Source: Malacoraja senta (lineage: Eukaryota). Taken from it: 64,000 nucleotides of DNA. The position numbers were made by a program, and so were the translations under genes. Below the pieces are notes generated by a model. The model had not been told where the DNA came from. It worked only from the letters and a program-made list of their open reading frames with translations, and ran no database searches. Where the stretch lies: the NCBI GenBank assembly GCA_038087875.1, contig CM075990.1, forward strand, positions 6,698,001 through 6,762,000. The letters are read 5' to 3'. Positions 20,736 through 55,876 of this stretch are shown one piece after another (position 1 is the stretch's first letter; every line of letters starts with the position of its first letter).

Positions 20736-21427
20736 GGTGTGAAGGCTAGCGTTTTCACACAGCCAGAAACCTAAGTTCAGCATTGCTGGTGGGGACCAGC
20801 ATGGATGGGACTGGTTTTGCTTGATGCAGGTGTTCTCCAGCACATGTGAGGCAGCATTGTTCTGAAGGAAGACAATGGATACTCTATCTCATTCACTATT
20901 CATGCTGTAAGAGCAGATGTGAGTGAAAAAAATCATGTAATGTCTGCCAAACGTAATGAGCATTAGTGAATAATGAGAAATGAGAAACCAAGTCCACTTA
21001 TGAAGGCTTTGTTCAGATAATTAATGATGAATTCATGCAACACTCCGAAGCTGAACAATGGGTCTGAAAAGTGAGTATTTCACCTCAGGGCTCGCTGTGG
21101 AAATTTCAAAGGTAATAAAAGCACAACTCTCTTGGTAAATGGTGAATGGTACATTGGAGTCTGTGCCCCAAAGCATGGGTGATGCGGACAAGGCTGGTAT
21201 AATGTGGTGTTACAGAGAGAGGAGGCGGAAGAGGGGAGCAACACAATGCCTTCCATGGCCGTAAGTCCCAGCAGGTAATGGCAGGTGCTGCCGCCTTTAT
21301 GGCCCAGTTAAGACAACAGGCCTTTATGACCAAGTTAAGACTCTAACATATTTAACAACTTTGAACTTGAAGGGTACAAGATGACCCAGGAAAACGTGGC
21401 GACTTGTGTCCTACCTCAGTGTCATCT

Positions 21428-21602
21428 CCTTCTTCTTGTCGAGTCCACACACAAGATTAGACGTTGTTCAGCCAGAGCTGAACGCACTTCACTGCATCTG
21501 CATACAATAGTGTCTGCTTTGCCCTTCTTGTGTTTCTTGTGCGTGGTGGTGGAAAGATTGGTGGAAACAGGGCCGCGACGTGAACGCTCTTTCCTTGACC
21601 CC
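21428..21602 (-). mobile_element. Short ribozyme-headed retroposon, family B (possibly Vingi/Ingi-type non-autonomous)
   Basis: TSD agtgtcatct/agcgtcatct (21418-21427, 21603-21612); (gaa)n tail; HDV-like head. Confidence 0.85.
21551..21602 (-). ncRNA. HDV/CPEB3-like ribozyme fold (52 nt)
   Basis: GGGGUC-AA-GGAAAGA-GCG-UUCACGU-CGC-GGCCCU-GUUUCCA-CCAA-UCUUUCC: P1 6 bp with G1-U, P2 7 bp, P3 3 bp. Confidence 0.85.
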
Positions 21603-22084
21603 AGCGTCATCTACTATCCTTACACTCTCTGCACTCTTGTAATTAAGCGTGATTGTGCTGATGTATAGTATGATTTTTATTGAACAGTATGCAAAAATAA
21701 AATAATTTCACTGTACAAACCCTTTGGCTCATTGATTCCATGTCGATCATGAAACCTCCACTGACACCAATTCTACACTCATCTCACATTCCTATCAACT
21801 CGATCACTCGCGTACTCACTGTGGAAAACTTACAGAAGCCAATTAACCTACAAACCAGAATATCCTTGGGATGTGAGAGAAATCTGGAGTGCCTGGTGGA
21901 AACCCGTGAATTCGCAGGGATAACGTGCAAACTCCAAAGAGGCAGCATCTGGGTCAGGGTTGAAGGCATGTTGCTAGATCTTAGTTGCCCATTCAAACAA
22001 TTCAATCAAATGAATGTGAAGGGATTTCTCATGCACATATAATGTCAGGTAGGAGGACCGCAGTCAAATATTAAGTATTAAGAA

Positions 22085-34382: not shown

Positions 34383-34846
34383 TGTTGAACATGCAGTAAG
34401 CTGTACTCAAGGAGCAATTTATCCATGATGATTGAGAAGCGGAATCAATGGGCAATGTGACTTTTCTTGCTCTGTCTTATCATATTCATTGTCCGAACAT
34501 TATAGTTGATCTCTGTAGGAAGATGTAGGCTCATGGTTCAGTCTTTCAAAACAAAAATCTATCATGAAAAATCCTGGACAAAAATGCAACAGACCTAACA
34601 ATTAGCAGCAAAATTAGAAGCAAGGGAATAAAAGGAAAGCTGCCAAGTCAGGGTGTAGATGATGGCACCTCCTCATCTCTGAGCTGGAAGGTTGTGAGTT
34701 CAACTCCCACTACAGAGAGATGAGCACTAAATCTAGGCTGATTCATCAGTGTAGCATTAACATTGTCGTGGGTTGGAGAAGTTTTACATAAGGTGTCACC
34801 CTGTGCCCTCATGATGTTGTGCAGTGTAGATGTCCATATCCCAGAA

Positions 34847-34974
34847 CTTCTTCTACTTGCGTATGGCGTGCACAGCCTAAGTTGTAGGACAACTTGTTCT
34901 ATTTGATTGTGCACACAGGTTGATCGTGTTTGTCGAAACAGGCGGACCACGTGAAAGTTGCAATCTCCCACCCC
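34847..34974 (-). mobile_element. Short ribozyme-headed retroposon, family A (decayed copy)
   Basis: Colinear with 54513-54650; TSD atcccaga / atccccaga (34838-34845, 34975-34983). Confidence 0.85.
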
Positions 34975-43479: not shown

Positions 43480-43572
43480 GGGATGCAAGCAGAAGCCTCC
43501 ACGTGGCGCATCCCGGGCAATGCTGATGACAGAAACTGTACCACAGTGACTGACTGAAGTAGCCAATTTTGC
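43480..43572 (+). ncRNA. HDV-like ribozyme fold (93 nt, long P4 region)
   Basis: P1 GGGAUGC/GCAUCCC, P2 GCAGAA/UUUUGC, P3 GCC/GGC, L3 UCCACGU, P1.1 CC/GG, J4/2 GCCAA (putative catalytic C at 43563). Confidence 0.88.
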
Positions 43573-43648
43573 AACCACCGACCGTCAACCATCACTGACC
43601 GACCGGAAAGACATGATATAGAAGATGGCCGGACACGAGGAAGGAAGA
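43480..43648 (+). mobile_element. Short ribozyme-headed retroposon, family C
   Basis: Perfect 11-bp TSD atgatgaccac (43469-43479, 43649-43659); tail acacgaggaaggaaga. Confidence 0.88.
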
Positions 43649-43694
43649 ATGATGACCACAGCTAGAACAATCAGCAGGTCAGCCTACCATGTCG

Positions 43695-54030: not shown

Positions 54031-54512
54031 ACCTACACAAGCTAAAACCAAATAAATTTGACCCGGGGCAGATTTTATTCCGAACATAATGTATGTAATT
54101 CTTCTTCGGCCCCCCTCGGTCATGGCTGACCATGGGTGTCTCCAGGGTGTTATCCCTATATGGAGGACGCCTGTGCGTGACTTTGTTTAACGTGGGGAGA
54201 CTGATGCACAGACAGCCACCCCACGGTCCTTGACAGATCTCGGTCAGGATCCAGTGGCATGGAGTCCAAGACGACCGGAGACCCTTTTCTGCTGCAGCTT
54301 TCATCCACCTTCCCAGCCGTTGTGACGCTCCACAAAGGTCAGCCATCATCCTCCTCCTGTTCCACCGTTGAGGTCTTGGTTGGATTGCTCTTTGTTAGAG
54401 ACCTCCCCCTCGACCTTACCACAATGGGTGGCCCTTCCAGGAACATAGCTCCAGACGGCATCGCTCTCAGGATCTCAGGTCCACACAAGCTTCTCCACCA
54501 CGACAAGGTGAC

Positions 54513-54650
54513 TTCTTCTTCTTGCATATGGCGTGCACAGCCTAAAGTTGTAAGACAACTTGTTCTGTTTGATCTTCTCTTTGTGCACGCCAGGTGGATT
54601 GCATTCGTTGAAACAGGGTGGACCACGTGAAGGTTGCAATCGCCCACCCC
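54513..54650 (-). mobile_element. Short ribozyme-headed retroposon, family A (138 bp)
   Basis: Perfect 11-bp TSD gacaaggtgac (54502-54512, 54651-54661); (gaa)n tail. Confidence 0.92.
54597..54650 (-). ncRNA. HDV/CPEB3-like ribozyme fold (54 nt)
   Basis: GGGGUGG-GC-GAUUGCA-ACC-UUCACGU-GGU-CCACCCU-GUUUCAA-CGAA-UGCAAUC: P1 7 bp with G1-U, P2 7 bp, P3 3 bp, J4/2 CGAA. Confidence 0.9.
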
Positions 54651-55876
54651 GACAAGGTGACAATCCACGGAGAAGATGTATGTAATAAAAAGCTGCAAAT
54701 GCTATAACTCGGTGATCAGGCAGCATCTATGGCAAACATGGACAGGTGACTTTTGGGGTCCAGAGGGGACCCTAGAATTATCTTTAATCAGACTTTACTG
54801 GACTTTAACTTACAGTAAACATTATTCCCTTTATCCTGTATCAATGCAACTACCTGTGACAGGACGGATATACAAAGAACTGCAGATGCCAGTTTAAAAC
54901 AAAAAAAGAACAAAGTGCCAGAGTAGTTCAGCGGGTCAGGCAGCATCACTGGAGAATGTAGATAGGTGACGCTTTGTGTTGGGACCTTTCTTCAGACCCG
55001 GGAGAGTGAAGGTTTGAGGTTCGTGCGGACAGTTTTGAGCGTGCATGAAACTCTGAAGATAGCATTGAAGAATATGTAACACAATATGTTCACAGTTCTG
55101 AAAACAAATATGTTGAAACAACAATTTTGGTACAGAATGTGAAGCCAGATGTGCTTGAAGCCTATGTGGAGAAGTAAATAATTAGAATGACTCATGCCTG
55201 GAGGTGGTATCTCAGAGTGCCAAATGTAACTGGCAGCGAAGAATTCAATGAACAGAGAGACCAAGATATCCAGAGAATTAATGGTTTGAATTTTCCAGTG
55301 CATATTGGCGTAAATAGTTAACCATGCATAATTGTTTGTATTCAAGTGGTTAATGGTCTGTGTGGGGGTTTTCGTTTGTTTTATAGAGTTATGGTGGCAC
55401 AGGGTAGCAGTGGTAGAGTTGCTGCCTTACAACGCCAGAGTCCCAGGATCGATTTTGACTATCAGTACGGAATTTGTACGTTCTCCCTGTGACCGCATAA
55501 TTTGTATAGGAAAAAAAAGGCCTAAATTGATGTTTCTGCGACAACAGAACTGCAAAAAAAAAGAAAGTTTGCCAGTATATAATAGTCCCAGGAAGGAGTG
55601 GGATGGAGGAAGGTTGGTGATATGCAGAACTAGATGGGGATGGGATAATGAGCAGGTGAAACAAGATGGATGGAAGGAGGAGGCAATGGGAAGGGTGAAC
55701 AAATGGAAAAGAAAACTAGGTGTTTCAGAGCAAATGGCTGTGCTGTGGTTTGGGTTTGTGGCAACTGTTAATTGAATGTAATTTCATTTATTAATATTAA
55801 TTTTCACATAACGACTCTACCACAAATATTTCACTGCCTGCTAACCTGAGAAGCAGATGTTTGATCTGAATGTTTA

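Follow-up and report, generated by a model that had tools for sequence, protein, structure and literature searches.

[quoted passage not shown] The sections of Kojima 2018 (PMC5786205) on which we draw count Vingi among the producers of bipartite elements and not among the ribozyme-bearing clades, and the supplement of that paper prints the 5' end of Vingi-2_Gav. Donor RNAs of Vingi-1_Acar carry both UTRs, and the excerpts of PMC13708176 cited here mention neither a ribozyme nor end pairing for Vingi. Minimal HDV-like ribozymes without P4 are active in phages according to the cited part of bioRxiv 2023.06.13.544163, and the CPEB3 ribozyme has been reported absent outside mammals (Bendixsen 2021). 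Here we describe an element from Malacoraja senta that bears on all of these systems.

The analysed stretch of DNA (64,000 nucleotides, hereafter the window) contains on the minus strand a 138-nt bipartite non-autonomous Vingi-like element (54513..54650). It begins with a predicted P4-less HDV-like ribozyme of 54 nt (54597..54650) and ends in a terminal motif with a (GAA)n tail (54513..54528), of the type found in Vingi-like families of the same genome. The predicted cut site, G1 (54650), is also the 5' end of the element and abuts the upstream copy (54651..54661) of an 11-bp target-site duplication whose downstream copy lies at 54502..54512. The repeat that received the element (54100..54675, minus strand) measures ~430 nt without the insert and has its own 11-bp duplication and GAA tail; 9/9 other fetched copies of it lack the insert and have the target site only once. 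This host repeat looks like a derivative of an RTE 5' UTR and had 2,880 candidates in the genome, 94-96% identical.

A second, decayed copy of the 138-nt family, 82% identical, lies in the window at 34846..34974 (minus strand), and the family is abundant in the genome (1.94 Gb). A search gave 3,467 candidates, the 40 that were scored being 96-100% identical. Exact matches numbered 3,628 for the ribozyme core and 3,253 for the 3' end, with none for reversed-pattern controls; the 3' pattern, checked by hand, was also present in 30 of the first 100 core matches. From these numbers we roughly infer ~10,000 copies, the 3' count including ends of the parent element described below. Most distinct copies examined were full length (75/79), and 55 of those 75 had target duplications of at least 8 bp (8-15 bp), vs 3/372 in the control. 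The duplication ended 0 to +3 nt from G1 in 42/55 and a few bases upstream in the other 13. When copies were chosen by the 3' end alone, 27/30 extended to the head. Duplications, variable tails, 5' truncations and inversions, the hallmarks of target-primed reverse transcription (TPRT), were all found. Divergence was 8.2% among position-sampled short copies (n = 41) and 2.5% among the 30 nearest to the 138-nt copy, which were selected by similarity. Viral contigs contained no relative.

The two halves of the element correspond to opposite ends of a 3-kb Vingi-like LINE in the same genome, ~78 nt of its 5' end and ~46 nt of its 3' end. At one locus, L335, the element head (90% identity over 62 nt) and the element 3' end lie on either side of an endonuclease-RT ORF that has decayed. 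When L335 served as the query, 40 candidates were scored and contained 54 matches. Most of 30 fetched parent copies end in the last ~40-46 nt of the element, including the ORF stop codon; one (L350) is almost complete and has a target duplication, and another (L358) is a 1.6-kb deletion intermediate, also with a target duplication. In the 138-nt copy, parent 5' UTR follows right behind the ribozyme as a 5' box (54582..54592). The deletion junction lies at approximately 54558..54573 and includes ~14 nt that match neither parent end. Beyond it come the end of the parent ORF with its stop codon (54542..54544) and a 3' box of parent 3' UTR (54529..54539), which is complementary to the 5' box and runs up to the terminal motif. 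A 7-bp hairpin (54545..54561) takes its 3' arm from the final stretch of the parent ORF, and its 5' arm arose at the junction. At two further loci (L085, L086) the parent has been deleted in another way, with more 5' UTR retained. Two head-tail pairs 3.3 kb apart (L196, L197) turned out to be short copies split by 3.3-kb CR1-type insertions.

The 30 fetched parent copies included no intact one, the longest frame being 442 aa, and mean divergence among them was 7.0% (n = 28). Set beside the 8.2% of the sampled short copies and the 2.5% of the nearest ones, this value suggests that the youngest subfamily may use the RT of another family. Since the junction lay elsewhere, four exclusion patterns aimed at the parent brought up nothing but deletion variants and truncated copies, and Pfam endonuclease and RT searches of the genome gave Nimb, CR1-type and L1-like elements, none with the element ends. 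A motif that we took to be typical of Vingi endonucleases, used as a search pattern, had 45 matches in the genome and one in the control, and further Vingi-like families came up when an intact ORF was used as the query of a protein search. Intact sister ORFs contain RT and endonuclease domains without RNase H (Pfam), in line with the account of Vingi in the cited part of PMC13708176. A single ORF of ~1,000 aa with APE and RT, no RNase H and a length of ~3 kb, as expected of Vingi, were read on these intact sisters, with which the decayed parent is colinear. In a tree of 25 RT rows, built without Ingi or named Vingi proteins, the parent grouped with the Vingi-like families and the Anolis protein P0061 (100/99), and the Nimb and CR1-type elements fell outside this clade. 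We take P0061 to be Vingi-1_Acar; the named Vingi anchor is the head of Vingi-2_Gav. ESM Atlas and protein searches yielded no clade name.

Several sister loci had features of their own. Two Vingi-like copies (L269:834-3857 and L271:833-3874) have unbroken frames of ~1,010 aa, are 96-98% identical to their sisters and carry the first 26 nt of the head as a tandem repeat. Family G copies with the same 352-aa frame and upstream sequence recur at L324, L325 and on many unplaced contigs, which suggests amplification or a tandem array. At L306 the 5' half is inverted, as is typical of twin priming.

Its short length, high copy number and a GAA tail like that of the host repeat could also mark the element as an ordinary SINE headed by a small RNA, or as an RTE-like host derivative. 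We give that reading almost no credence, as it is refuted by the Vingi-like parent to which both ends map; moreover, there is no Rfam small-RNA match, and the host repeat is an insertion target only. A SINE in the strict sense has a tRNA, 7SL, 5S or snRNA head, and the head here is a LINE 5' end.

The head has the nested double pseudoknot of HDV-like ribozymes, with its helices at the positions given in the original prediction: a 7-bp P1 (54650-54644/54621-54615) with a G1-U36 wobble, P2 (54641-54635/54603-54597), a 3-bp P3 (54634-54632/54624-54622), a 7-nt L3 (54631-54625) and, after a further 7 nt, J4/2 (CGAA, 54604..54607), which opens with the predicted catalytic C44 at 54607. By the reference features and CPEB3 numbering in the cited part of PMC4836649, the core residues are all present (U20, C22, G25, G37 of P1.1 and the C first in J4/2). 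A true P4 helix is missing, as had been stated, consistent with the minimal subclass, but the 7 nt before CGAA resolve into J1/4 (GU) and a 5-nt P4 remnant (54608..54612), UUCAA here and UUCGA in most copies. A strict ribozyme descriptor, run over both strands of the window, had two matches, this head and another Vingi-type head. A looser scorer gave the 138-nt copy 33, and 0/600 control windows of 200 nt reached 29. Rfam had no match in the window at gathering level and none for the element at E up to 10.

On one descriptor, 16/19 heads from the same genome and from metagenome contigs scored at least 26, vs 2/600 controls. As pairing is built into this descriptor, percentages of paired positions do not count as independent evidence, but the location at the 5' end does. 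Across sister heads the helices vary and the core residues stay, in a set of 19 heads in which the parser misread families B and C and returned none for M; among metagenome heads it recovered 3/21, and more were recognised by eye. The proposal of an HDV-like ribozyme without P4 is supported by the sequence, by its place exactly at a retroposon 5' end and by the covarying heads of sister families. Heads without P4 also occur in family L of the window and at metagenome locus L388. The family L element (21427-21603, minus strand) reached 29.7 bits on the Rfam CPEB3 model RF00622 and has a GAA tail and, by eye, a 10-bp end pairing, and six further copies were among the best 30 Rfam matches. Another short ribozyme-headed element, family K (43480-43649, plus strand), has a 10-bp duplication, a tail like that of the Vingi-like locus L320 and end pairing of 8/9.

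A head without P4 might no longer cut and might instead have the role of an internal promoter, or of a fold that protects the 5' end, full-length 5' ends then coming from the transcription start. The J4/2 sequence does vary among subfamilies (CGAA, CUAA, CAAA), and Pr77 of L1Tc is described as both promoter and ribozyme in the cited part of PMC4035085. A polyA RNA run of another organism (~6% read, 1,022 reads placed) had reads on both strands, 237 of which crossed G1 into the flanks, and no pile-up of starts; the lack of a cleaved-end signal agrees with an inactive head, although such read placement neither shows nor excludes cleavage. Against inactivity, positions required only for catalysis are kept while the helices differ (C24 in 14/17, G25 in 15/17, and the C of J4/2, with 2/17 rows mis-parsed), 12/30 copies sampled by their 3' end keep the whole descriptor, and P4-less forms are active in phages (bioRxiv 2023.06.13.544163, in the part cited). 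We regard loss of cutting as improbable and, judging from sequence, the 138-nt family as probably catalytic.

For the copy at hand, the suggestion that it may still be active was weakened by modelling. An A9C change at 54642, private to this copy (1/75), is predicted to extend P1 into P3, a 9-bp P1 being favoured at -15.8 vs -12.8 kcal/mol, and a sister copy is predicted to fold natively. In the construct proposed earlier, the upstream flank is predicted to capture the 3' strand of P2. These are nearest-neighbour predictions without pseudoknots. With both A9C and its leader predicted to misfold the head, the 138-nt copy is a poor representative of its family, and from its sequence we would put catalysis by this copy itself at somewhat short of an even chance.

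Downstream of the head, both helices were exact as described: an 11-bp stem at 54592-54582/54539-54529 and, enclosed by it, a 7-bp hairpin at 54561-54555/54551-54545. The 3' half, taken to be fully structured, does contain these helices, but the tail and ~20 nt enclosed by the stem have essentially no pairing; on folding it was more stable than shuffled sequence (z -3.24), and the whole element had z -2.16. One arm of the stem is parent 5' UTR and the other parent 3' UTR, 3 kb apart in the LINE. In-register pairing of the ends, with differing sequences, recurred across 13 Vingi-like families. Cognate ends averaged 7.5 pairs of 9 vs 5.3 for non-cognate ends (0/500,000 permutations), a permutation value that is too strong given that the families are related and the register was set post hoc: the pairing was noticed by eye in sister families and then scored, and the register was chosen afterwards. 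At least 7 of 9 pairs formed in 10/13 cognate and 24/156 non-cognate combinations, and the register was nearly constant (5' offset 4-6 in 13/13, 3' offset 0 in 12/13). The tail anchor of family E is uncertain in this test, families I and J were each assembled from two different copies, and families G, M and N and loci L371-L373, which have one end missing, were left out. The three held-out metagenome elements among the 13 had 7, 7 and 9 pairs of 9, and held-out m369 did no better than controls. In ten families, duplex energy averaged -12.4 when the ends were cognate and -6.4 when they were not (1/200,000 permutations), the cognate end being the best by duplex energy in only 4/10 rows.

The end pairing might still be a functionless by-product of reverse transcription, in which template switching or fold-back copies one end onto the other. 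In its favour, 5' inversions and tandem head duplications do occur, as noted above (L306; L269, L271), 25/27 copies of the 138-nt subfamily form all 11 bp of the stem where parent-like copies form 8-10, and families B, F and H form only 6/9 end pairs. A fixed register across ~3-kb families with different box sequences speaks against this origin, which we consider unlikely. The inner hairpin is missing from the parent and is therefore probably not an RT signal. The earlier idea that the 3' stem is a candidate signal for RT recognition stays plausible in modified form, as an inherited pairing of 5' UTR with 3' UTR common to Vingi-like families.

Overall, we consider it very probable that the ends of a Vingi-like LINE were joined by internal deletion and that the product spread to thousands of sites, likely by means of its ribozyme and a borrowed RT that would recognise the end stem. 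By cutting at G1, the ribozyme would free the element from read-through transcripts of the host, and an RT supplied in trans by a full-length Vingi would recognise the stem formed by the two ends. The stem may serve in template selection or in protecting and compacting the RNA.

Sister heads of the element also match the CPEB3 ribozyme model RF00622, with up to 64.2 bits at a cut-off of 35. Family A heads that sit directly on Vingi-like ORFs scored 63.8 and 59.7 bits. In a genome search, 39/51 matches exceeded the cut-off, with none in 14 control genomes; the best 30 comprised 10 on Vingi-like ORFs, 5 of families A/D, 6 of family L and 9 orphan heads. Compared by eye over the 54 positions outside the middle of P4, the gharial Vingi-2_Gav head equals the Rfam CPEB3 consensus at 52/54. 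From the cited part of the PMC5786205 supplement, again by eye, the alligator SINE2-1_AMi has the same P4 stem, and a short hairpin just before its Vingi-type tail motif. Five orphan heads of family M (L457, L459, L461, L467, L470) resemble the CPEB3 consensus even in P4, and family M heads are followed by ~25 nt like the 5' UTR of family C.

Such likeness could reflect convergence on a narrow fold instead of descent. RF00622 is permissive near its cut-off, giving 37.3 bits to an unrelated P4-less metagenome head, and the heads of families M and N, which include the five closest, had no Vingi ORF within 10 kb downstream (9/9). Yet paired positions vary freely among heads and Vingi-2_Gav still agrees at all but two positions, SINE2-1_AMi shares the P4 stem, and a third of the best 30 matches lie directly on Vingi-like ORFs, so that convergence appears quite improbable. 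On sequence comparison, the mammalian CPEB3 ribozyme is likely a stranded Vingi 5' end; descent is inferred here, and what speaks for a direction from Vingi to CPEB3 is how widely Vingi heads are distributed. On balance we lean towards a broader reading: Vingi elements would start in a CPEB3-type ribozyme, and their RNA would be closed by pairing between the box that follows the ribozyme and the one that precedes the tail, which would account for the two-ended miniatures of the clade; the memory-linked mammalian CPEB3 ribozyme would have been domesticated from a Vingi 5' end, and thousands of its minimal relatives would be dispersed in the genome studied here. If true, this would give the CPEB3 ribozyme the origin and the outgroup that it has lacked. 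A search of the open literature found neither a Vingi origin of CPEB3 nor Vingi end pairing; Repbase or Dfam notes, patents and subscription journals may record a Vingi ribozyme.

Compared with known systems, the element is a new minimal form of a known architecture, the ribozyme-headed bipartite derivative, here of Vingi, and its value lies in two wider leads, end pairing and the origin of CPEB3. It is built like R2 SIDE, NARTc, RIME and the Vingi-1_EE deletion derivatives, and unlike them it is only 138 nt long, has a head without P4 and is dispersed in thousands of copies; the cited parts of the sources describe no end-to-end stem for elements of the R2 SIDE, NARTc or RIME type. Such a stem offers a testable reason why Vingi yields two-ended non-autonomous elements, a bias unexplained in the cited sections of Kojima 2018 (PMC5786205). 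It also flags an RNA element in a clade used for gene insertion: the Vingi-1_Acar gene-writing systems, as described in the cited part of PMC13708176, likewise build on a single-ORF APE element without RNase H. The CPEB3 ribozyme shares with the head L3, J1/4, J4/2 and the numbering to position 38 (U20, C22, G25, U36), but is single-copy, intronic and equipped with P4, and the 138-nt element itself has no RF00622 match. Minimal HDV-like and theta ribozymes, in the cited part of bioRxiv 2023.06.13.544163, also lack P4 and have the catalytic C first in J4/2; those were found next to tRNA genes in phages of the gut and in metagenomes, whereas the head described here belongs to an animal retroposon. 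P4-less ribozymes, known from phages, would thereby extend to the genome of an animal, where they number thousands.
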